NCBI GenBank assembly: GCA_964493715.1
Contig: CAZBPC010000074.1
Location: 1 to 16,818, forward strand
Reading direction: 5' to 3'
From: an uncultured archaeon
GTDB lineage: Archaea; Asgardarchaeota; Lokiarchaeia; Sigyniarchaeales; SOKP01
Length of the DNA stretch: 16,818 nt
In this document: piece by piece, positions 2,577 through 15,403 of the stretch
Position numbering within the stretch: the stretch's first letter is position 1
How the letters are laid out: every line of letters begins with the position of its first letter
Position numbers and translations under genes: made by a program
Notes under the pieces: generated by a model
Database searches by the model: none
Told to the model about the DNA's origin: nothing
What the model saw: only the letters and a program-made list of their open reading frames with translations

Positions 2577-4481
2577 TTATAAAAGATATCTCGTTAAACC
2601 AAGTTCTTTTAATTTATGGGTGGAAGGAGTCCCATTTTCTTTATCCCAACCACGTTCATCATAATAATCATCCAGTAATTGTTTAGCAATATCCCTATTA
2701 ATTTTTACATTTCCATAGAAATCGTAAAATTCGAGTTTATTTTCACCATATTTTAAAGGTGTGAACCAATTTTTTGGGAATGCGTCATCTTGCCGAGAAA
2801 AACCTTCCTTAACATTCATTAATTTCATTAGATTCCATGATCTCTCAGCTGCTAGTCTTATTTCATCAACCTTTAAATTGAGTCCAGTTATTGCATTATA
2901 AAAAGATGTAACGAGTTCCAAACTATAAAATCTGTTCATCTGTGCTCGAGCACATAATCCAAATGATGTTAATATTGTATACCAATCTTCTGAATATCTG
3001 GTTAATCTACCAACATTTATATTCATCTCTTTTTTGGGTGGTCTAAATAACCTATCTACAGCGCTCTCAGGGATTCCCATTCTATTAAAGTGGGATTTCA
3101 TTTTTTCTATTCCTCCTCCTGCACCAACATAAGTTGGGGATCCTCCTGAAGCAACATGCGCCCCTTTCGGATTAACCACCTGCTCAAATTCCATAGTTCC
3201 TAGCTTTAAAAACCTTGGTTCAAAAACGACATCTAAACCTTTTATAGTAAGCATTTCTTCTTCCAAATTAGCTTTTAAACGTGTGATTTCTTTCCAACCA
3301 TCAGCTAAGATATTCCCAATCCCATTTCTATAGGTTATGATCTCAATTAAATGTTCATAAGTATTATAGTCCTTTTTCCATTCAAATCCTAAATCTTTGT
3401 TTGTAAGAGAACCTTGATCGATCATTCTTGATATAAAATCAAATAATGAGGTAATTGTGAGAGAATCTAATCCATATCGACTGATTACGTCAAATATTTT
3501 AATTGCTCGATCATAAGAACTTAAGCCATCAGAAGTGAACATCAAAAAGGGATTAATTATTGATGAAGTGTAATTCAGCAGTCCTTCAAATTTTCCTTCG
3601 CGTATCTCAAGAATATCCTTATCAGCCATTGGGCAACTAGGGCATCCAATTCTTCTGAATTTTATATTTTTAAGATAATTTCGATCACTACATTGTCTTG
3701 CTTTCTTTTTTTCGCCTTTTGCGTTTAATATCATTCCAACGGGTAAGCTTCTCAACATTCCAAGTTCAATCCATGAATCTCTATGTGGATATTTCCGAAC
3801 TCGATCAATAAAACTATCATATAATTTATTAAATTGTTTTGGGTTAGCAATTTCGATTCCTTTTGAACCTTTAACTACAATTGCCTTTAAGTTTTTTGAT
3901 CCCATTATTGCACCTAAGCCTCCCCGACCTAAAGTTGAAGTTTTATCTATTAAAGTGATTGCTCCAAATACCAAATTTTCTCCCGCTTGACCAATTGCTA
4001 TCACTCCGCAATCATCGTATTTCCTCCACATCAAATTGGTTGTTTCAACAATATCTAATCCCCAAATTTTGTCTGCATTGACTAAATCGATATGATCATC
4101 AAATATGTATAGATATTTTGGTTTATCTGCTTTTCCAGATAAAATTATATGGTCATAACCAGCTTGTTTTAGATGAAATCCGAAGCTCATTCCACCACAA
4201 ACGCTGGCAACTGCTCCTGTAGCAGGAAATTTTGAGAACCCAGAAGTTCTAGATGCTCCGGGCATTATAGTACCTACCATTGGTCCTGTACCAAGTACAA
4301 TTATGTTATCAGGGGAAAGAGGATTCGTTCTGGGTTTCAATCGTTCAGCTCCCAGAAAGAAATTCATACCCATACCACCAAGGAATTTCTTGACATCTTT
4401 GAGATCTTCTCCAGTAGAGGAAATTTTCTCATCTGATAGGTTAATTTCTAGTATTTTACCAGTATATCCATACCAATTCAA
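2577..4481 (-). CDS. aor: Aldehyde:ferredoxin oxidoreductase (W/Mo-bis-pterin AOR family), divergent
   Basis: AOR-family motifs GYTGKILEINLS, LKQAGYDHIILSGKA, IGQAGENL, GRGGLGAIMGSKNLKAIVV and C-terminal LLDDYYDERGWD..G.P....LKELGL. The TTG start overlaps the ferredoxin TGA (TTGA 4481-4478) and has an SD-like GAGGTGA 7 nt upstream. Confidence 0.88.
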   Translation of the reverse strand: MNWYGYTGKILEINLSDEKISSTGEDLKDVKKFLGGMGMNFFLGAERLKPRTNPLSPDNIIVLGTGPMVGTIMPGASRTSGFSKFPATGAVASVCGGMSFGFHLKQAGYDHIILSGKADKPKYLYIFDDHIDLVNADKIWGLDIVETTNLMWRKYDDCGVIAIGQAGENLVFGAITLIDKTSTLGRGGLGAIMGSKNLKAIVVKGSKGIEIANPKQFNKLYDSFIDRVRKYPHRDSWIELGMLRSLPVGMILNAKGEKKKARQCSDRNYLKNIKFRRIGCPSCPMADKDILEIREGKFEGLLNYTSSIINPFLMFTSDGLSSYDRAIKIFDVISRYGLDSLTITSLFDFISRMIDQGSLTNKDLGFEWKKDYNTYEHLIEIITYRNGIGNILADGWKEITRLKANLEEEMLTIKGLDVVFEPRFLKLGTMEFEQVVNPKGAHVASGGSPTYVGAGGGIEKMKSHFNRMGIPESAVDRLFRPPKKEMNINVGRLTRYSEDWYTILTSFGLCARAQMNRFYSLELVTSFYNAITGLNLKVDEIRLAAERSWNLMKLMNVKEGFSRQDDAFPKNWFTPLKYGENKLEFYDFYGNVKINRDIAKQLLDDYYDERGWDKENGTPSTHKLKELGLTRYLL

Positions 4482-4717
4482 TTTTCATTCACCTCAATAA
4501 TTTCTAGTGCTCCATATAAACAGTGACGCGCACAATGTCCACATTTTATGCAATCTTCTGAAAATTCGATTTTTGGGGTTAATTCATAGATATCATGTAA
4601 TTCAATTCTAGAAAAAGCTGGCAAGTATTTCCCATTATATAGAAAGGAGCAAGAAAGTTGGCAGATTCGACAACCCACACACTTTTCTGGATGGATTAGA
4701 ATTTCATAAACTCCCAT
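4478..4717 (-). CDS. Small 2x[4Fe-4S] ferredoxin-like protein, probable AOR partner
   Basis: CVGCRICQLSC and CIKCGHCARHCLYGAL motifs; 4-nt overlap with aor suggests translational coupling. Confidence 0.9.
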   Translation of the reverse strand: MGVYEILIHPEKCVGCRICQLSCSFLYNGKYLPAFSRIELHDIYELTPKIEFSEDCIKCGHCARHCLYGALEIIEVNEN

Positions 4718-4737: not shown

Positions 4738-6240
4738 TTATATATTAACAATTACTCCTTTTTCCCTTATTTTTTTTATTTCTTTTGGAATATCCGTAAA
4801 TTTATTAAAATTAAGATATAAAGTTTTCAGATTGGCTAAGGTTTCGATTTCATTTGGAATTACTTCTATTTTATTTCCCCACAGATTTAATATCTCAAGA
4901 GATTTCAGAGAACCAATCCATATAGGAATCTCTGTGATATTATTCCAACTAAAATTCAGCGATTTTAGATTTTTTAGATTTGAGATACAAAAGGGTATTT
5001 TTTGAAAATGATTATTCCTAAAGTTTAGTAATTCTAATGTCTCTAATAAACTAAAATTTTCAGGGAGGTCTTTTAATTGATTATCATGAATTGAAAATTG
5101 TTTTAAATTTTTTAAATTTCCGATCCAAACAGGTAATTCTTTAATTTGATTACGTTCAAGATTTAGTTCAATTAATACGTTTAATTTTTTAATACAATCG
5201 GGAATATGGTCAAAATTGTTCCATCCAAGTTCAATTTGAGAGAGTGATACCAAAGAATCTATATCTATTAGAAAATTGGAGAATTGATTATGATGTAAAT
5301 CTAACAATTTCAGTTTCTTTAAAAAACCTATAGAGGAAGGAAGTGTATTAAGAGAATTGTCTCTCAGAATCAATGTTTCAAGATGATTTAAATTATTAAT
5401 GGTTTCAGGAAGAGATTTTAATCTGTTAGATTTAAGATTTAGCACTTTCAATTTTGTGAATACTGAAATGGAATTAGGTAATTTATAGATATCATTATAA
5501 CTTAAATCTAAATATTCAAGTTGATTAACTCTATTTATTACTTCTGGAATTGTCTTAAGATGATTATTACTCAAATCTAATCTTTCTAAAAATGAAAGAG
5601 ACAATATTGCTTCAATGGAGTTAAATAATTTGTTGAAGCCTAAACCTTGATAATCTACATTTGATAAATCTAAATCAGTAATGGCACCATTCTTATTAAG
5701 AGAAAATATTATATGACCAAATTTAAGTTTTAATGAACAAATTACAAGATAATTTATTAGAATTTCTGCTAACTCAAAATTATTCAAATTTTTTAAATCT
5801 TGTATTTTAACTATATCTTTTAGGTTATATTTATATTTCTTCTTATAGAATTCATTAATTTTCTTAACTAAAATTGACCGAGTCTTTTCATTTTCCATTA
5901 CTGCTAAAGAGTTTATTATCCCTATCTGAACTGCAAGTGACTTTTCGTTTTGTAGTACCCAATTAATTGGTGGAATCGCATGCTCGATGAATAATGTAGT
6001 TAAAATTTTAGCTGATTGAATCCTTATTTCCTCACTATTATCCGAAATTAAAAGATTTTCTAAAAATGTGAACAATCTTTTAGATTTATCATCAATTTTC
6101 TCTAAAACTTTAATAGCTTCTAAACGCGTATCAATATTTTCGGAATTATCAATGTTGGTTATTAACAAGTCGATGGCAGAAGCTTTGTCTAAATTACCAC
6201 TTTGAACATCATTTAAAATAGCAGTTGGAGTGAATGGCAT
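4738..6240 (-). CDS. HEAT-repeat + LRR protein, paralog 3 (500 aa; 12 x 23-aa LRRs)
   Basis: TRLEAIKVLEKI...LENLLISDNSEEIRIQSAKIL, then 12 LRRs colinear with paralog 2 (both contain LKSLEILNLWGN). Confidence 0.92.
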   Translation of the reverse strand: MPFTPTAILNDVQSGNLDKASAIDLLITNIDNSENIDTRLEAIKVLEKIDDKSKRLFTFLENLLISDNSEEIRIQSAKILTTLFIEHAIPPINWVLQNEKSLAVQIGIINSLAVMENEKTRSILVKKINEFYKKKYKYNLKDIVKIQDLKNLNNFELAEILINYLVICSLKLKFGHIIFSLNKNGAITDLDLSNVDYQGLGFNKLFNSIEAILSLSFLERLDLSNNHLKTIPEVINRVNQLEYLDLSYNDIYKLPNSISVFTKLKVLNLKSNRLKSLPETINNLNHLETLILRDNSLNTLPSSIGFLKKLKLLDLHHNQFSNFLIDIDSLVSLSQIELGWNNFDHIPDCIKKLNVLIELNLERNQIKELPVWIGNLKNLKQFSIHDNQLKDLPENFSLLETLELLNFRNNHFQKIPFCISNLKNLKSLNFSWNNITEIPIWIGSLKSLEILNLWGNKIEVIPNEIETLANLKTLYLNFNKFTDIPKEIKKIREKGVIVNI

Positions 6241-6253
6241 ACCTAATCTCTTT

Positions 6254-7228
6254 TCAACTCTTTAGAATTTCATCCATTTTTTTAAAAGTAGTGTTTTTTA
6301 AACTGAATTCTGAATGTAAACCTTTTAATGATTTTATTCTATTGAACTCGGAATCTTGTATATTAATGTCTTTGCATCCACCTAGTGCCAATTTTTTACT
6401 AATTGTAGTTAAAATGTTTAAGTCTTGGCAAAATTTAAGAAGAAACGAATTGTTTATACTCGATTTTTCAATAAGAGTGTTTTTAACATCATAAAGTCTC
6501 AAGTTTTTTACGAAAATGTTTCTTAAAATCAAAAATTCTCTCACATGAAAAAATTCGAGAGTTTTTATCTTAAATGGTACTGAATCTAAAGAATCGATTA
6601 TTATAGGATCGTCACTCGTTCCCTTTCCAGTGCATTCTACTTCCCAGGAGACTGCGCCTTTGGAATTCGCATAACAATCAATATGATATGTAGGTTTTAA
6701 AGTTTTATCAACTGGAGCTTCCATCAATTTGTAGTCCCTTTCATTGGGATCACAAACTTCATTGTCTTTAATCACATTATTTCTACTTAATCCACCTGGA
6801 TTATAGATGAAATTATAAAATGAACATTGTTCGAAGATATTGTTGTAGCACTTATAAATGGTAGCAGATTCTTCAGAAATCAATTTAAAGATCCTAGAAT
6901 TATGGCATTCTATCATTTTAAACCAACTACATTTTATTCCTTCTGCATAAATATTTAAACAATTTCTTAAATCTAAAATTCGTAACTTACAATTGATAAT
7001 TGAAATATTGGCACAGTAAAAGATGTTTAAGAACGCCAATGTACAATCCTTAAAAATAATATAAATATCAGATTCTAATACCTCAATGTTTAATTTTGGA
7101 TCTGAATAGGAATCTATTACAGCAGGATTGTCCTTAGTACCCAATCCAATACATTCTATTTCTAGATCCTCGAATTTAATTGGATATCCAATAAAAGAAT
7201 ACTTTGCTATTCGTAATTGTACCTTCAT
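6254..7228 (-). CDS. Hypothetical protein with two tandem GxGTxD(N/D)P-capped right-handed beta-helix-like modules
   Basis: 324-aa ORF in the operon-like run. IECIGLGTKDNPAVIDS and VECTGKGTSDDPIIIDS are each followed by periodic xCxN/xCxD beta-rich coils. The fold is inferred. Confidence 0.7.
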   Translation of the reverse strand: MKVQLRIAKYSFIGYPIKFEDLEIECIGLGTKDNPAVIDSYSDPKLNIEVLESDIYIIFKDCTLAFLNIFYCANISIINCKLRILDLRNCLNIYAEGIKCSWFKMIECHNSRIFKLISEESATIYKCYNNIFEQCSFYNFIYNPGGLSRNNVIKDNEVCDPNERDYKLMEAPVDKTLKPTYHIDCYANSKGAVSWEVECTGKGTSDDPIIIDSLDSVPFKIKTLEFFHVREFLILRNIFVKNLRLYDVKNTLIEKSSINNSFLLKFCQDLNILTTISKKLALGGCKDINIQDSEFNRIKSLKGLHSEFSLKNTTFKKMDEILKS

Positions 7229-7255: not shown

Positions 7256-8794
7256 TCAGATTCTTTCAATCATCATCCCACCTAGTATAATGGGTCCTCC
7301 AGTAGAATTGTATATTTTCTCTGCTCTTTTTAGTTTTATTTGGCTTTCTGCATATATTTTAAACACGAGATCTCCCTCTTCTATTCTTGCACCTTGTTTT
7401 TTAAAGATTTCCACACCTGATTTTTTAGAGTAAGGACACCCCGCAGCTTTAGCGATTTGATTGATTATTTTATTGTTTACTCCAGTAATATGACCCGCCT
7501 TAACTGCATAAAATTCATTTTTATACGGACCTAATTCTATATCTTGAGGTTGGATATTGGGATTTCCTCCTTGTGCTTCAATTATTTTTATCATCTTATC
7601 ATATGCTTTTCCAGAACGTAAAATTTCTTTTGCTAAGGTTTGACCCCTACCACGTTGAACTTTTCCACCCATTTCAAGCAATATTCCGGCTAAATCAGTA
7701 GATTTTTCAATCAAAGAGTTTGGTCCTGCAGAATAGTTCATGAGTAATGAAAGTGCTTCTTTTGCTTCTAAAGCAGGACCAATAGCATGACCTATTGGTT
7801 GATGCGCTAAGGTTAAAGCACATTCCGCTTCAATCCCTACATTTTTCGCGATTTCTTTAAAAACATAAGCAAACTCTTTCCCATTATTTGCTGTTGGAAA
7901 TTTAGTTCCAGGACCGCATGGTATGTCTAAAACAAGTTTTTTCACACCTAATGAAAGTTTTTTTGCAAGAATCGAGGGTATCATAAGCCCTATAGGATCC
8001 ATATGGAGAGGACGTTCAATCTCAATGAGAATATTATCTGCAGGCGCAGTGTTAAGTGCACCTCCCCAAATTATACAAGCATTTTCCTTAGAGACGATTT
8101 CCTTTAATTCTTCATATTCAAATGCAACCGGAGCCAATACTTCCATAGAATCTGCTGTACCAGATGGAGAAGTAATTGCTCTAGTCGATGATTTAGGAAT
8201 AGTTATTCCAGCTGCAGCTACAATAGGGACGATTATTAATGAGACTTTATTTCCAGGAACTCCCCCCGTGCTATGTTTATCAAATACATTAGTTCCGAAG
8301 TTATAAATTTTCCCACTCCGAGCTTCTGCAAGAGTTAAAGCAGTCATTTCATCATGGTCCATTCCATTTATAGCTACACCTGTAATAAAAGCAGCTAATT
8401 CTATTTTTGGCAATGAACCCGAAACAGCATCTTTGATAATTTTATTTATTTCTTCTCCCGTAAGTTTATTTGCTTTTATTTTTTTTTGGATAAAACTGAA
8501 AGACTCCGGTGGATCAGCAGGTTTAATGGAAAGCATCACACCCTCTTTAATATTCTTTTTTTCTTTTAAAAGATCAAGAGAGAGTCCTATTTCTCCGGGT
8601 TGAACTATTGAATTAGAATGATCAATCTCTAAAATAGCAACCCAGTATTTATCCTCAATAGATTTTGATTTAATATTTTTAATTCTTATTCTTTCTCCAG
8701 CTTTTTGTCCAAGTTCTAATGAATCGTTATAGGTAATAATAACATCTTTCCTATTTCCCGTTTCATAATTCATTACTTTAACTTTTAATTTCAT
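7256..8794 (-). CDS. deoA: AMP phosphorylase (archaeal nucleoside-monophosphate phosphorylase, thymidine phosphorylase family)
   Basis: DKHSTGGVPGNKVSL, IPKSSTRAITSPSGTADSMEVL, SILAKK, LDIPCGPGTK, QPIGHAIGPALEAKEAL, IIEAQGG; 512 aa with the N-terminal extension typical of AMP phosphorylases. Confidence 0.93.
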   Translation of the reverse strand: MKLKVKVMNYETGNRKDVIITYNDSLELGQKAGERIRIKNIKSKSIEDKYWVAILEIDHSNSIVQPGEIGLSLDLLKEKKNIKEGVMLSIKPADPPESFSFIQKKIKANKLTGEEINKIIKDAVSGSLPKIELAAFITGVAINGMDHDEMTALTLAEARSGKIYNFGTNVFDKHSTGGVPGNKVSLIIVPIVAAAGITIPKSSTRAITSPSGTADSMEVLAPVAFEYEELKEIVSKENACIIWGGALNTAPADNILIEIERPLHMDPIGLMIPSILAKKLSLGVKKLVLDIPCGPGTKFPTANNGKEFAYVFKEIAKNVGIEAECALTLAHQPIGHAIGPALEAKEALSLLMNYSAGPNSLIEKSTDLAGILLEMGGKVQRGRGQTLAKEILRSGKAYDKMIKIIEAQGGNPNIQPQDIELGPYKNEFYAVKAGHITGVNNKIINQIAKAAGCPYSKKSGVEIFKKQGARIEEGDLVFKIYAESQIKLKRAEKIYNSTGGPIILGGMMIERI

Positions 8795-12108: not shown

Positions 12109-12202
12109 ATTTATCACTTTTTATAAATTTTATATCCTAAATCTGATTAGAATTAGAATATTAGTATAGCTAGAATTTTTCGTATTTAAGACTACCTATT
12201 AA

Positions 12203-12223
12203 AAGTTTGATAGTCTCAAACTT
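12203..12223. repeat. Perfect 8-bp inverted repeat AAGTTTGA-N5-TCAAACTT
   Basis: Read directly from the sequence; lies between the mvhD 3' UTR U-tracts and the promoter region of the 8-TM gene. Confidence 0.6.
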
Positions 12224-12224
12224 C

Positions 12225-12240
12225 AAAAAATTAAAAAATA
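12225..12240 (-). terminator. Oligo-U terminator of the hdrA-mvhD transcript
   Basis: TATTTTTTAATTTTTT on the minus strand just downstream of the SECIS-like hairpin, which would put the hairpin inside a 3' UTR of about 90-100 nt. Confidence 0.55.
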
Positions 12241-12257
12241 AGGGTTAAAACATATAT

Positions 12258-12327
12258 ACCGAAACCAATGCTTTATGGTTAGTCCTCTGGTGACTAGAAT
12301 TTTCTCACGAGAGTCATACTTATCGGT
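12258..12327 (-). ncRNA. Eukaryote-like (Loki-type) SECIS element, cis-acting in the mvhD 3' UTR
   Basis: mRNA: ACCGA UAAG U AUGA CUCUCGUGA GAAAAUUCUAG UCACCAGAG GA CU AACCA UAAAGCAU UGGUU UCGGU. AUGA (12317-12314) and GA (12284-12283) form a kink-turn core, with a 9-position upper helix (one C-C mismatch), an apical loop containing AAAA, and an outer ACCGA/UCGGU stem. It starts at the first base after the stop of a gene with in-frame UGAs. Confidence 0.85.
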
Positions 12328-12789
12328 TTATTTCTTTACTTTCGTTTTGACATCTTCCTCCTCTTTTTTAGAGTTGGATTGTCTCACGGGATTGGTACCT
12401 AAATTTTCAATTACATCTGAAATACGGGTGACTTCTTGTTGAAATCTTTGACCTTCTGCGGCACTACAGTGGAACATTTGGACTCGTTCGGGATTTAGTC
12501 CTGCTGTTTTTAGGATTTCTTTAGTATATTCGACATTTTTTGCTGCTATGAGATTTCCTGTTTCATAATCGCACTCGCCTTCATATCATCCTGCGACAAT
12601 AATACCGTCAGCTCCCTTTCCTATGGCTCTCATCATCAGACTTGGGGTGACTCTACCCGTACAATTAATTCTAATCGGTCTGATGGTTGCAGGATATTGT
12701 GCCCGGATTGTTCCAGCCATATCTCCCGCGCCATATCCTCATTTCCAGCACATGAACGCAATAATCTTTACTTGGTCTTTTACAGTCAT
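12328..12789 (-). CDS. mvhD: F420-non-reducing hydrogenase iron-sulfur subunit D (MvhD/VhuD/FlpD family), selenoprotein with 2 Sec (U17, U68), 153 aa; missed by the ORF track
   Basis: Manual translation: MTVKDQVKIIAFMCWK-U-GYGAGDMAGTIRAQYPATIRPIRINCTGRVTPSLMMRAIGKGADGIIVAG-U-YEGECDYETGNLIAAKNVEYTKEILKTAGLNPERVQMFHCSAAEGQRFQQEVTRISDVIENLGTNPVRQSNSKKEEEDVKTKVKK-TAA. TGAs at 12741-12739 and 12588-12586 fall on the Cys of the family CxxC and GCxxGxCxY motifs. SD-like GAGGT lies in the 15-nt gap after hdrA. Confidence 0.95.
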
Positions 12790-12804
12790 TTGTCTAATAC
12801 CTCT

Positions 12805-14775
12805 CTATATTTCTTCAAGAATTGCATCTAATTGTTTTTCATATTGTGGTTCACGATAATAGCTAAGTGTAATAGCTTCGGAAGGACAATTAGCCAAACA
12901 AGACCCACATCCACGACAGAGAATCTCATCTACATCTGCTCCATCTGTTTTTAAAGAAATCGCATTATATGGACAATTTAATTCGCATAATCCACATTTT
13001 GCACATTTTTCCTTATCCACAGTAGCTCGAATGAGCATTATTCTAAATTTATCTTTTCCCATTATGCGAGTTACAGATGTTGCGGCAGCTCTTCCTTGGG
13101 AAATAGACTCTGAAATTGATTTAGGCCCTTGAGCTACTCCAGCAAGCACGATACCTGGAATTTTCGTGTCAATTGGATTTAACCGTGAGTGAAATTCCTT
13201 GAAAAAGCCATCTTGACTGGTTTCAAGCTTTAACATCCTCCCAATTTCCTCAACTCCTTTTGCAGGCATCATTGCGCAAGATAATACGACCAAATCATAC
13301 TCAATTTCCTTTAAACCAGAATTTGATAGGGTATTTTGTAGTATCACTTTAAGATTATGGGTTTCTGGGTCTTCGTAGATCTTCGAAACATTTGTTCTGA
13401 TGTATTTTATACCTTCCTTCCTTGATGCGGTATAGTATTCTTCATAGTCTTTTCCTGCTGCTCGAATATCCATATATGCTACGCTGATATCTGCATCGGG
13501 ATAGTGTTGTTTGATTAATTTCGTATTTTTAATTGAGATCATGCAACACACCCCAGCACTGCAATATGTTTGTTTATTCAAATCTCGTGAACCAACACAT
13601 TGTATGAATAATATACGTTTTGGAGTTTTCCCGTCTGATGGTCTAGCAAGATGTCCTACAGTTGGACCATTAGGAGCAAGTAATCTTTCAAGCTTCATTT
13701 GAGTTATAACATTAGGATACACGTTATAACCCAAATATCCTGTTTCAGGTTCATATTCATCCCATCCTGTTGCTACGATAATTGTACCCACTTTAATTTC
13801 TACTATCTCATCTTCTTGATTGAAATCAATAGCATTTACCTCGCAAGCTTTTTCGCATAATCCGCATTTTATACATCTATTCATATCAATTTGAGCTTTT
13901 GAAGGAACAGCTTGAGCAAATGATACATAAATTGCTTTCCTACTATTCATGCCTTCATTAAATTCGTTATATCCATAAGAAGGACAAACCTCAAAACACG
14001 CGCCGCATCCATTGCAATCATTATTAACATACTTAGCAAATTTTCTAATTTTAACATCGAAATTTCCTACAAATCCAGATACTTCTTCAACTTTACTATA
14101 AGTATAGAGATTCAAATTGGGGGTCCGAGCTGCTTGAAGCATGACCGGCCCAAGAATTCAAATGCTACAATCATCAGTTGGGAAAGTGCGGTCAAGCATC
14201 GCCATTTTTCCTCCAATGGTGGGACTTTTTTCGACAAGATGTACTTCAAATCCCTCATCGGACAGATCAATTCCAGCACTTAATCCGGAAACACCACCCC
14301 CAATAATTAAAGCTCGTTTTGTGATGTCAACTTCTTTTACAAGTATTTTCTCTAACGTTGCAGCGCGAGCTACTCCAGACTTGATTGCATCTTCTGCAGT
14401 CTTTTGAGCTCCCGGTTTATCTTGCCGATGTACAAAACTTGCATGTTCTCGAATATTAACAAATTCTAAAAAAGAAGGATCAATATTCATTGCTTCAAGA
14501 ACGCTTTTAAAAACTGGTTCATGAGTTTTAGGGGTACAAGATGCGACAACGAGTCGATTTGCATTACTCTCGATCATTTTCTCTTTTATAAACTCCGCCC
14601 CCGGTTCAGTGCATAAACTTATATAGTCTGAGGCATCCACGACATTTGGAAGTTTCTTGGAAAATTCTGAAAGTGCTTTCGTGTCAATAATTTCAGCGAT
14701 ATTAATTCCTCAGGCACAAATGCTAACGAAAATCCGTATCTCTTCAGTATTTTTTGTAATCTCTGCTTCTACCAT
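12805..14775 (-). CDS. hdrA: Heterodisulfide reductase subunit A (FAD/Fe-S electron-bifurcating subunit), selenoprotein with 2 Sec (U22, U206), 656 aa; split into two ORFs in the track
   Basis: One frame from ATG 14775: MVEAEITKNTEEIRIFVSICA-U-GINIA (TGA 14712-14710; family CxCGxNI), VASCTPKTHE, NIREH, IIGGGVSG, LDRTFPTDDCSI-U-ILGPVM (TGA 14160-14158; family DCSxCILxP), ferredoxin insert, IIVATG, CVGSRD...YCS...CCM, GVAQGPK and two C-terminal CxxCxxCxxxCP motifs; ends at TAG 12807-12805. Confidence 0.96.
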
Positions 14776-14962
14776 TGCATATTCTACCTATTTTATTTTA
14801 GATATCCTCCTACATTAATTCCATACTATTTCAAAAATTTTTTACATTTAAAATATCTTATGAGAAAAAAGTAATTTTAAATCAAAAATCTTTTATATAT
14901 CTTTTATAAGTTATCACATTAAAAATCATTTTATATTAAAATAAAAGTCACTGGTTATAATA

Positions 14963-15403
14963 ATGCTATCAAACATATATCAAGTAACTGGAGTCACCTC
15001 AACTGGTATCATAATTACATATTCTATTGTTGCTGGAGTATCATTTCTATTCATGATATTATTTTTCAAATTAGGATTAGCAAGTGTTAAATCAAAGACT
15101 CGGAAAGGATTCAAGTGGTTAGCCATTAGTGTTATAATGCAATTGTTTATAGTTGCTTTGCTGGCGTCTCCATTTATCCTTATAGGATTTACAGGAGAAT
15201 CTGAGTACAAAGGACCTTCGCCTGGTTTAATCATATTTGCCATCATATTGGCAATATTTTTAGATCTAAATATTATTAACGTTCTTCATAAAACGGGATT
15301 GAAAAGAGCTCTTTTATGCTTCTTCTTGATGCTCGTTCCACTCGTTGTTGGAGCTATGATTGGTGTTTTAATATCGCAGTTAAAGCTTTTTATTCCAATA
15401 TGA
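14963..15403 (+). CDS. Hypothetical membrane protein, about 4 TM
   Basis: 146-aa ORF with four hydrophobic segments separated by Lys/Arg-rich loops; divergent from hdrA and convergent with pyrF. Confidence 0.8.
   Translation: MLSNIYQVTGVTSTGIIITYSIVAGVSFLFMILFFKLGLASVKSKTRKGFKWLAISVIMQLFIVALLASPFILIGFTGESEYKGPSPGLIIFAIILAIFLDLNIINVLHKTGLKRALLCFFLMLVPLVVGAMIGVLISQLKLFIPI

Follow-up and report, generated by a model that had tools for sequence, protein, structure and literature searches.

A selenoprotein hdrA-mvhD pair in a Lokiarchaeia archaeon with four in-frame UGA codons and one SECIS element after mvhD

The hdrA-mvhD locus

The 16,818-nucleotide stretch considered here (hereafter the window) is contig CAZBPC010000074.1 of GenBank assembly GCA_964493715.1, or contig C74 of a 3.68 Mb genome from an uncultured Lokiarchaeia archaeon. 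Two genes on its minus strand, hdrA and mvhD, carry between them four in-frame TGA codons, and directly after mvhD lies a selenocysteine (Sec) insertion sequence (SECIS). An earlier reading of the letters of the window (the original prediction) proposed that this one element recodes all four codons, and the comparative analysis described below makes it very probable that a single kink-turn (K-turn) SECIS after mvhD decodes four UGAs across hdrA-mvhD on one mRNA. The coding features of the locus are:

14775..12805, minus strand: hdrA, 656 codons plus TAG (12807-12805), two Sec codons; a heterodisulfide-reductase subunit A-like flavo-iron-sulfur protein
14712..14710, minus strand: hdrA Sec codon 1, residue 22 from Met (U24 in P0001 numbering), 2395 nt from the AUGA of the SECIS
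14160..14158, minus strand: hdrA Sec codon 2, the canonical HdrA Sec site (DCSIU), 1843 nt from the SECIS
12804..12790, minus strand: hdrA-mvhD spacer, 15 nt, carrying a GAGGT ribosome-binding-like motif
12789..12328, minus strand: mvhD/vhuD (FlpD family), 153 codons plus TAA (12330-12328), two Sec codons
12741..12739, minus strand: mvhD Sec codon 1 (U17), 424 nt upstream of the SECIS
12588..12586, minus strand: mvhD Sec codon 2 (U68), 271 nt upstream of the SECIS

When read through, the hdrA frame is open from the ATG at 14775 and its only interruptions are the two TGAs. The product aligns over nearly its full length (residues 13-655) with chain 5odc_A of the PDB at 676 bits, and Pfam recognises 4Fe-4S and FAD/NAD-binding domains in it. 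It therefore has full-length HdrA architecture with Sec on the Cys near residue 200, the position termed canonical by Mariotti et al. (2016, PMC4989117). In 5odc_A the first hdrA TGA falls on the Cys of a CxCG motif and the second on the last Cys of DCSIC. The mvhD product matches Pfam PF02662 (FlpD) at 146.7 bits (cut-off 22.3; E 4.1e-43), and its PDB relatives are 9sfi_K, 9sw2_D and 5odc_D. Both of its TGAs align with Cys in the MvhD structure 9sw2_D and with a non-standard residue (printed X) in 9sfi_K, an F420-non-reducing hydrogenase delta subunit.

The order hdrA then mvhD on one strand is kept in all 66 hdrA-containing relatives, with spacers that are mostly 10-20 nt long and reach 44-47 nt in three loci; neither hdrBC nor mvhAG adjoins the pair described here. 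Translation with table 11 turns hdrA into ORFs (open reading frames) of 445 and 160 aa and leaves mvhD with no ORF of at least 50 aa, and standard gene calling breaks hdrA and drops mvhD in every relative as well. On all of these points the original prediction has held up: it placed the four TGAs at 14712, 14160, 12741 and 12588, assigned them to conserved Cys positions, noted that a 15-nt gap leaves no room for a 3′ element specific to hdrA, and expected standard annotation to split the first gene and lose the second.

Conservation of the TGA codons and the genetic code

Relatives of the locus were sought by scanning one genome per species, which gave 68 loci that encode a close relative of MvhD (69-94% identity). 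With a single exception they stand under archaeal titles, mostly Promethearchaeota (Asgard), and the closest include a series of metagenome-assembled genomes (MAGs) that is named in the Asgard selenoprotein literature (isolate bin41). Among the loci that cover each site, the codon is TGA at hdrA site 1 in 53 of 56 (TGT in the other three), at hdrA site 2 in 58 of 58, and at each of the two mvhD sites in 67 of 67. Two of the six search queries spelled Cys at the TGA sites, so the sampling of relatives is free of a bias towards TGA. Contigs from an independent DNA run (X3; records 14, 15 and 21) are letter-identical to the window across all four codons. The four TGAs are neither chance nor assembly error.

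TGA also works as a stop codon in the same genome. It ends four of the 13 complete neighbouring ORFs (a ferredoxin at 4478..4717, a deoA-like gene at 7256..8794, a small membrane protein at 14963..15403 and an ORF at 6254..7228) and 16.7% of long ORFs genome-wide. The recoding is local, and the genetic code is unchanged.

The one relative without an archaeal title (L068; JAWODV010000081.1, 4221 nt) is binned as a Kosmotogaceae bacterium. Its hdrA-mvhD pair is of the Asgard type, has both mvhD TGAs and is accompanied by a SECIS of the Loki type (lokiSECIS) at 57.8 bits; the sequence is most likely a mis-binned archaeal contig.

The SECIS element after mvhD

The element covers 70 nt (12327..12258) and starts directly 3′ of the mvhD stop codon. 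Its core is made up of the following parts:

12317..12283, minus strand: SECIS core (AUGA, helix II, apical loop and GA)
12317-12314, minus strand: AUGA, 10 nt after the mvhD TAA
12313-12305 with 12293-12285, minus strand: helix II, 9 bp, arms CUCUCGUGA and UCACCAGAG, with one C-C mismatch
12304-12294, minus strand: apical loop GAAAAUUCUAG, 11 nt, A-rich at its start, the last position a G preceded by A
12284-12283, minus strand: GA 3′ of the stem, assigned from the sequence

All the features published for the lokiSECIS are present, that is AUGA, a 9-bp stem, an 11-nt loop with an A-rich start and a final AG, and GA or AA after the stem (Mariotti et al., 2016, PMC4989117). The element likewise fits the Asgard type I model of eukaryote-like SECIS (eSECIS-like) elements, which has a GA_GA core, an upper stem of 7-15 bp and a loop of 8-20 nt (PMC11227280).

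A loose regular expression for the core has 108 matches across the whole genome; the pattern alone is not specific, and covariance models were used instead. With at most one stem mismatch, the core pattern could be placed after mvhD in 61 of 66 sequences, and these form the alignment (A1) from which a covariance model (R1) was built. A/G-UGA is invariant in the 61 aligned elements, as are the AAA and the final G of the loop and the GAC after the stem; in the hdrA-mvhD class the flanks are nearly invariant too, as G-N-AUGA ... GAC-NN-ACC. Helix II is 93% paired in A1 (slid-register controls give 37-54%), a percentage that is partly by construction, the training set having been picked by pattern. 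The compensatory changes are not: both sides have changed at eight of the nine pairs across 56 distinct sequences, and the covariation score was reached by none of 500 shuffles.

Scanned over the window with filters off, R1 finds the element at 12327..12258 with 59.7 bits (E 2e-12), and the next best match has 12.5 bits. Among relatives it gives exactly one match per locus in all 66 that extend past mvhD, always just after that gene; the five loci that were not used in training score 43.7-51.3 bits, one of the 66 matches is clipped by a contig end, and the two loci that lack a match end inside mvhD. The distance from AUGA to the mvhD stop ranges from -4 to +26 nt in the 66 loci, with a single value of -101 from a locus (L071) in which only a late TGA stop was located.

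Selenocysteine machinery

Sec decoding presupposes a tRNA-Sec and a synthesis pathway, and these are encoded elsewhere in the genome. The tRNA-Sec (59 bits, over the Rfam cut-off; anticodon TCA by ARAGORN) lies on another contig, directly beside a SepSecS gene at 476 bits, over its curated cut-off. Three kilobases from these two is an EFSec-like factor for which selB is clearly the best family (233.8 bits versus 129 for EF-Tu), with a score below the NCBIfam cut-off of 242.25. A PSTK-like kinase has selen_PSTK as its best family at 169.1 bits, below the cut-off of 290.5. There are two SelD genes, each with one in-frame TGA and each over the curated cut-offs. SBP2 has not been found in Asgard genomes (Huang et al., 2024, PMC11227280).

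Evidence on whether one element serves both genes

The Sec codons of hdrA lie a whole gene away from the SECIS, and several lines of evidence bear on whether the element serves them. Within the window (filters off) and in the 66 relatives, R1 finds no second SECIS in or upstream of hdrA. A scan of synonymous sites in codon alignments of 45 loci shows no constrained stretch inside hdrA or mvhD (all |z| < 2.5), the exception being the first ~10 codons of hdrA, where z reaches 8.6; the scan ignores phylogeny and would miss short or poorly conserved elements. Over 54 loci, the 160 nt that precede hdrA give no consensus structure with RNAalifold (energy 0.0).

A further observation concerns stop codons. 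The hdrA stop, UAG here, is split evenly among the 66 relatives between TAG (33) and TAA (33), with no TGA. For mvhD, 19 of the 66 loci do end in TGA, and 14 of these stops coincide with the UGA of the SECIS AUGA itself. Avoidance of UGA at the hdrA stop but not at the mvhD stop is what would be predicted if a downstream element acts on hdrA and not on codons adjacent to it. Within this genome, all four TGA-containing hdrA-mvhD pairs (on contigs C74, C59, C39 and C7) have one SECIS after mvhD; the seven Cys-type mvhD homologues all lack one within 220 nt.

The sequences that could bound a common transcript are:

14909..14896, minus strand: TTATAAAAGATATA motif, ~120-135 nt upstream of the hdrA start, a candidate TATA-box promoter
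12250..12225, minus strand: T-runs (T4, T6, T6) just 3′ of the SECIS, candidate archaeal termination signals judged by sequence

The TTATAAAAGATATA box has column conservation of at least 70% in the 54 aligned loci and is a candidate TATA-box promoter for the hdrA-mvhD pair, and the T-runs are the likely 3′ end of the transcript. The other conserved motifs in the upstream 160 nt are GGAGGA and the start region. Since the spacer has only 15 nt, no conserved promoter-like motif lies between the genes, and their synteny is invariant, we infer that hdrA and mvhD are co-transcribed.

At the hdrA start itself (14760-14790, minus strand), TGATATGCAATGGTAGAA is kept in at least 70% of the 54 loci, and an out-of-frame ATG-CAA-TGG-TAG mini-frame overlaps the start. 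These conserved nucleotides probably relate to translation initiation.

Proposed mechanism and alternative explanations

The mechanism that these observations suggest would work as follows. The unit belongs to an Asgard (Promethearchaeota, Lokiarchaeia-type) archaeon and comprises two selenoprotein genes, most likely expressed from a single mRNA. This mRNA may start near 14900, at a promoter that precedes hdrA by ~120 nt, and end in the T-runs just past 12258. Its four UGAs would be read as selenocysteine by Sec-tRNA(Sec), delivered by an EFSec of the archaeal/eukaryal type, and the single eukaryote-like K-turn SECIS would recruit that factor over distances of 271, 424, 1843 and 2395 nt. To reach hdrA, the SECIS would have to act past both the stop codon of that gene and the start of mvhD. 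Held as UAG or UAA, that stop codon would escape recoding, and the mvhD stop may be too near the SECIS to be recoded.

A number of points weigh against this account. No Loki-type SECIS is known to have been shown active by experiment, and one that was tested in Methanococcus maripaludis is reported as not functional (PMC11881835). Contigs from RNA libraries (X17, X19), which derive from relatives ~90-92% identical, reach into both genes and take in the canonical hdrA TGA, where no difference is listed; none of them spans the hdrA-mvhD junction by at least 31 nt, and none covers 12150-12430, where the SECIS and the T-runs lie. Folded as a single sequence, the 3′ untranslated region (UTR) has no advantage over its shuffles (z -0.73; 43 of 200 fold equally well), so that support for the structure rests on the comparative data. 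An Rfam scan of the window (E <= 10) found no SECIS family and two chance snoRNA-like matches; this null is uninformative either way, as no archaeal or Loki model matched. To these may be added the limits already mentioned, namely the pattern-picked training set, the insensitivity of the synonymous-site scan to short elements, and the EFSec-like and PSTK-like scores that stay below their cut-offs.

What else could account for the in-frame TGAs? They might simply not be decoded, as in pseudogenes, assembly errors or a genome-wide reassignment. Nothing beyond the bare presence of in-frame stops speaks for this, and the same four codons recur in 53-67 loci from many MAGs with intact flanking frames, the independent run is letter-identical, TGA terminates other genes, and tRNA-Sec and its pathway are present; conservation, independent contigs and stop usage effectively refute it, and we give it next to no credence. 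It is improbable, for other reasons, that hdrA has a recoding signal of its own in its coding sequence, its 5′ UTR or within mvhD, leaving the element after mvhD to serve mvhD alone. R1 and the extended model described below (R2) recognise Loki-type elements only and would pass over such a signal; methanogen selenoprotein genes have been described with one SECIS each, and Mariotti et al. assume a degenerated ancestral hdrA SECIS (both PMC4989117). The strong nucleotide conservation of the first ~10 hdrA codons and the start codon region could also be taken that way, but it suits translation initiation better than a SECIS. Synonymous change is not suppressed near either hdrA UGA in the 45 loci, the upstream 160 nt yield no consensus structure in 54, and the 15-nt spacer is too small for an element. 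The absence of UGA among the hdrA stops (0 of 66) is what a downstream element predicts.

The hdrA UGAs might, finally, be decoded with no SECIS in cis, either through an element acting in trans or through sheer abundance of EFSec and Sec-tRNA, with the two genes perhaps not co-transcribed. The RNA contigs give no evidence of a single mRNA, and the genome has at least nine similar elements that might act in trans. Free read-through of UGA would be harmful, however, because TGA is a working stop in four of 13 neighbours and in ~17% of the long ORFs. All 66 loci keep the tandem order, a short spacer and a lone element downstream, and the hdrA stop avoids UGA. We regard decoding without a cis element as no likelier than a separate hdrA signal, which is to say improbable. 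One K-turn SECIS shared by the two genes remains the explanation we favour, and the element at 12327..12258 would then be the one that serves hdrA.

Relation to known systems

The original prediction put forward the sharing of the SECIS between cistrons as an inference of its own. This model had in fact been published: Mariotti et al. (2016, PMC4989117) propose one shared SECIS for HdrA-VhuD, which would act on as many as six UGAs within ~2 kb while UGA is avoided as the hdrA stop, and Huang et al. (2024, PMC11227280) widened it across Asgard archaea. The rest of that prediction fared well. The hairpin after mvhD is the only SECIS-like one found in the window; TGA is a true stop in the ferredoxin, deoA-like and membrane-protein genes, as was claimed in support of local recoding; and of the outcomes it named as damaging, a genome lacking Sec machinery (tRNA-Sec, SepSecS and SelD are there, EFSec and PSTK as best hits below cut-off), TGAs produced by misassembly, and a separate SECIS within or upstream of hdrA, none was encountered in the searches described above.

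The hdrA-mvhD arrangement with its single SECIS is real, already known and ordinary for the clade. It resembles the Lokiarchaeota HdrA-VhuD pairs in gene order, strand and very short spacer, in a multi-Sec HdrA with its canonical site near 200 and a VhuD with two Sec, and in a lone element after VhuD, a UAA or UAG hdrA stop and a reach of ~2 kb (PMC4989117); measured against that description there is no essential difference, this copy having 2+2 Sec. A paralogous pair on contig C7, with 4+2 Sec, equals the published maximum of six (PMC4989117). The locus also resembles the Asgard hdrA-frhD cluster with its eSECIS-like type I elements, both in its fit to the type I model and in the lack of SBP2 (PMC11227280). 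Huang et al. report that neither the internal loop nor the lower stem has nucleotides conserved between families (PMC11227280), whereas the hdrA-mvhD class has near-invariant G-N-AUGA and GAC-NN-ACC flanks, a CCG/CGG helix I and a covarying side hairpin, which are taken up in the next section.

The HdrA and VhuD selenoproteins of Methanococcales and Methanopyrus belong to the same families, with the same Sec columns and a 3′-UTR element. The methanogen VhuD SECIS also has AUGA and GAC (PMC4989117). The methanogen-type SECIS, with its GAA_A bulge, nevertheless differs in structure, methanogen HdrA has one Sec, and a shared element is not claimed there; the inactivity of the Loki SECIS in M. maripaludis (PMC11881835) sets the two systems further apart. 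Eukaryotic type I SECIS elements share the AUGA...GA K-turn quartet, the A-rich apical loop, the place in the 3′ UTR and a reach of kilobases, but they have a longer helix II and their K-turn is read by SBP2. Selenoprotein P, like this locus, has several UGAs per message; it uses two SECIS elements for one ORF, whereas at this locus two cistrons, separated by a stop codon, would depend on one element.

The pair in the window is therefore a well-documented further example of a model published in 2016 and adds no new idea to it. What the locus and its 66 relatives do offer is a clean comparative set for the case in which one 3′ element would program an upstream cistron across a stop codon, without SBP2. 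Two by-products of the analysis may be new: an architecture of the SECIS as a junction, and an obligate Sec-Sec protein family.

A possible three-way junction around the SECIS core

In the minimum free energy (MFE) fold, the sequences on either side of the SECIS core form two further helices:

12327..12258, minus strand: proposed whole SECIS domain (helix I, core and helix III), MFE fold
12327-12323 with 12262-12258, minus strand: helix I, ACCGA with UCGGU, MFE fold
12280-12276 with 12267-12263, minus strand: helix III (side hairpin), AACCA with UGGUU, loop 12275-12268, MFE fold

Helix III is predicted between the GA and helix I, and together with the core these would make a three-way junction with the K-turn at its centre. 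A covariance model extended to this layout (R2) scores the window element at 79.6 bits.

Support for the side hairpin is comparative. When 63 relatives are aligned by MAFFT, which is blind to structure, helix III is 84% paired and three of its five pairs have changed on both sides; in a model-fitted alignment of 73 elements, which leans to the structure, the figures are 86% and five of five. Helix I is nearly invariant as CCG/CGG, with compensatory GCG/CGC and UCG/CGA in two loci. Its column counts give 74-75% pairing, a figure blurred by a 1-nt spacing difference in about half of the sequences; as neither MAFFT nor the model resolved that spacing, helix I was assessed by an explicit search in each sequence.

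The same layout, in unrelated sequences, recurs within this genome in SECIS elements that belong to at least four gene families. Searched for explicitly, the junction scored at least 9 in all seven other elements tested. Compared with shuffled flanks, nine elements together reach a Fisher combined value of 2e-5, the single values ranging from 0.002 to 0.17. In 37 elements of the UU family described in the next section, helix III is 85% paired (MAFFT) with both-side changes at six of six pairs. A flank-energy test of the junction, weak when taken alone, gave a mean z of -1.7 for hdrA-mvhD and -0.75 for the UU family. The layout was followed through loci L022-L089 and the genome's own SECIS elements on contigs C59, C39, C7, C14, C12, C77, C4 and C48.

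Published descriptions speak of a core, an upper stem, a loop and a generic "lower stem" or "internal loop", and no mention of a junction or side hairpin was found in the text passages considered from the two papers (PMC4989117, PMC11227280). In topology only, the layout resembles the k-junction (Wang et al., 2014, PMC4005666), in which the helix on the canonical side of a K-turn is joined by a third helix; the likeness is a lead and not a claim of membership, the structure here being known from sequence and predicted pairing. We propose only tentatively, and with some doubt, that the Loki-type SECIS may be a k-junction-like three-way junction made up of helix I, the K-turn arm and a covarying 3′ side hairpin. 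If the junction were the functional unit, it could be a platform that replaces SBP2 (through direct EFSec docking or another K-turn binder), and could account for the failure of the hairpin by itself in a methanogen host.

A candidate Sec-Sec family outside the window

Tracing the SECIS hits in the genome led to two paralogous genes of ~155 codons, each with an adjacent TGA-TGA pair and a lokiSECIS just downstream (hereafter the UU family):

C48:21729-22196 (= L100:1501-1968), plus strand: UU gene 1
C4:10816-11232 (= L096:205-669), minus strand: UU gene 2

Neither Pfam, NCBIfam nor the PDB holds a relative. A six-frame search found the family in 98 of 119 genomes of the class, and nearly every full-length match has exactly two TGAs. 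In the 41 loci examined in detail the TGA-TGA pair stands at the same aligned place without exception, within PD-x-G-C-U-U in one clade and H-A-D-U-U in the other, and a SECIS core is found at 36 of them. An invariant Gly and the Tyr of a "YGK...HYF" tail lie downstream of the pair, and their invariance shows that translation runs on past it. In close relatives the gene sits in a conserved cluster of orf216, a 2x[4Fe-4S] ferredoxin, orf138, the UU gene and YdjM.

The 76 relatives in databases are of two kinds: some end at the pair (~118 aa, "hypothetical protein"), and the others have Trp-Trp there, from gene callers that read TGA as W. None of the 76 is a Cys-Cys homologue, which would explain why methods based on Sec/Cys homology miss the family. 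It is absent from the lists of selenoprotein families in the published text passages considered (five in 2016, seven in 2024 and eleven archaeal in 2026), and a text search of the literature found no Sec-Sec protein in Asgard. Judged by sequence, the UU family (~150 aa, invariant Sec-Sec) is a candidate new selenoprotein family.

Other SECIS-linked genes and neighbouring features

The genome holds at least nine SECIS elements similar to the one in the window, a lower bound, as 150 of the first-look candidates (8724 for R1, 4695 for R2) were scored, and the element on C59 was recovered by the regular expression only. Further Sec hdrA-mvhD pairs lie at C59:3681-6114 (minus strand), C39:15498-17991 (minus strand) and C7:59850-62185 (plus strand). 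In the C7 pair, hdrA has TGAs at columns 24, 57, 82 and 208 and mvhD has two, making six; the C39 mvhD has Cys at its second site. Other SECIS-linked genes are a Prx-like protein on C77 (W-U-S-H-C), a VhuU-like C-terminus on C12 (D-C-U-L-S-C) and small U-containing ORFs on C14 and C111; a weaker SECIS match is found at C1:72429-72493.

ARAGORN found no tRNA in the window. Elsewhere in it are three paralogues with N-terminal HEAT repeats and leucine-rich repeats (2-931, 996-2543 and 4738-6240, all on the minus strand), and these flank an aldehyde:ferredoxin oxidoreductase (2577-4481) and a small ferredoxin (4478-4717).

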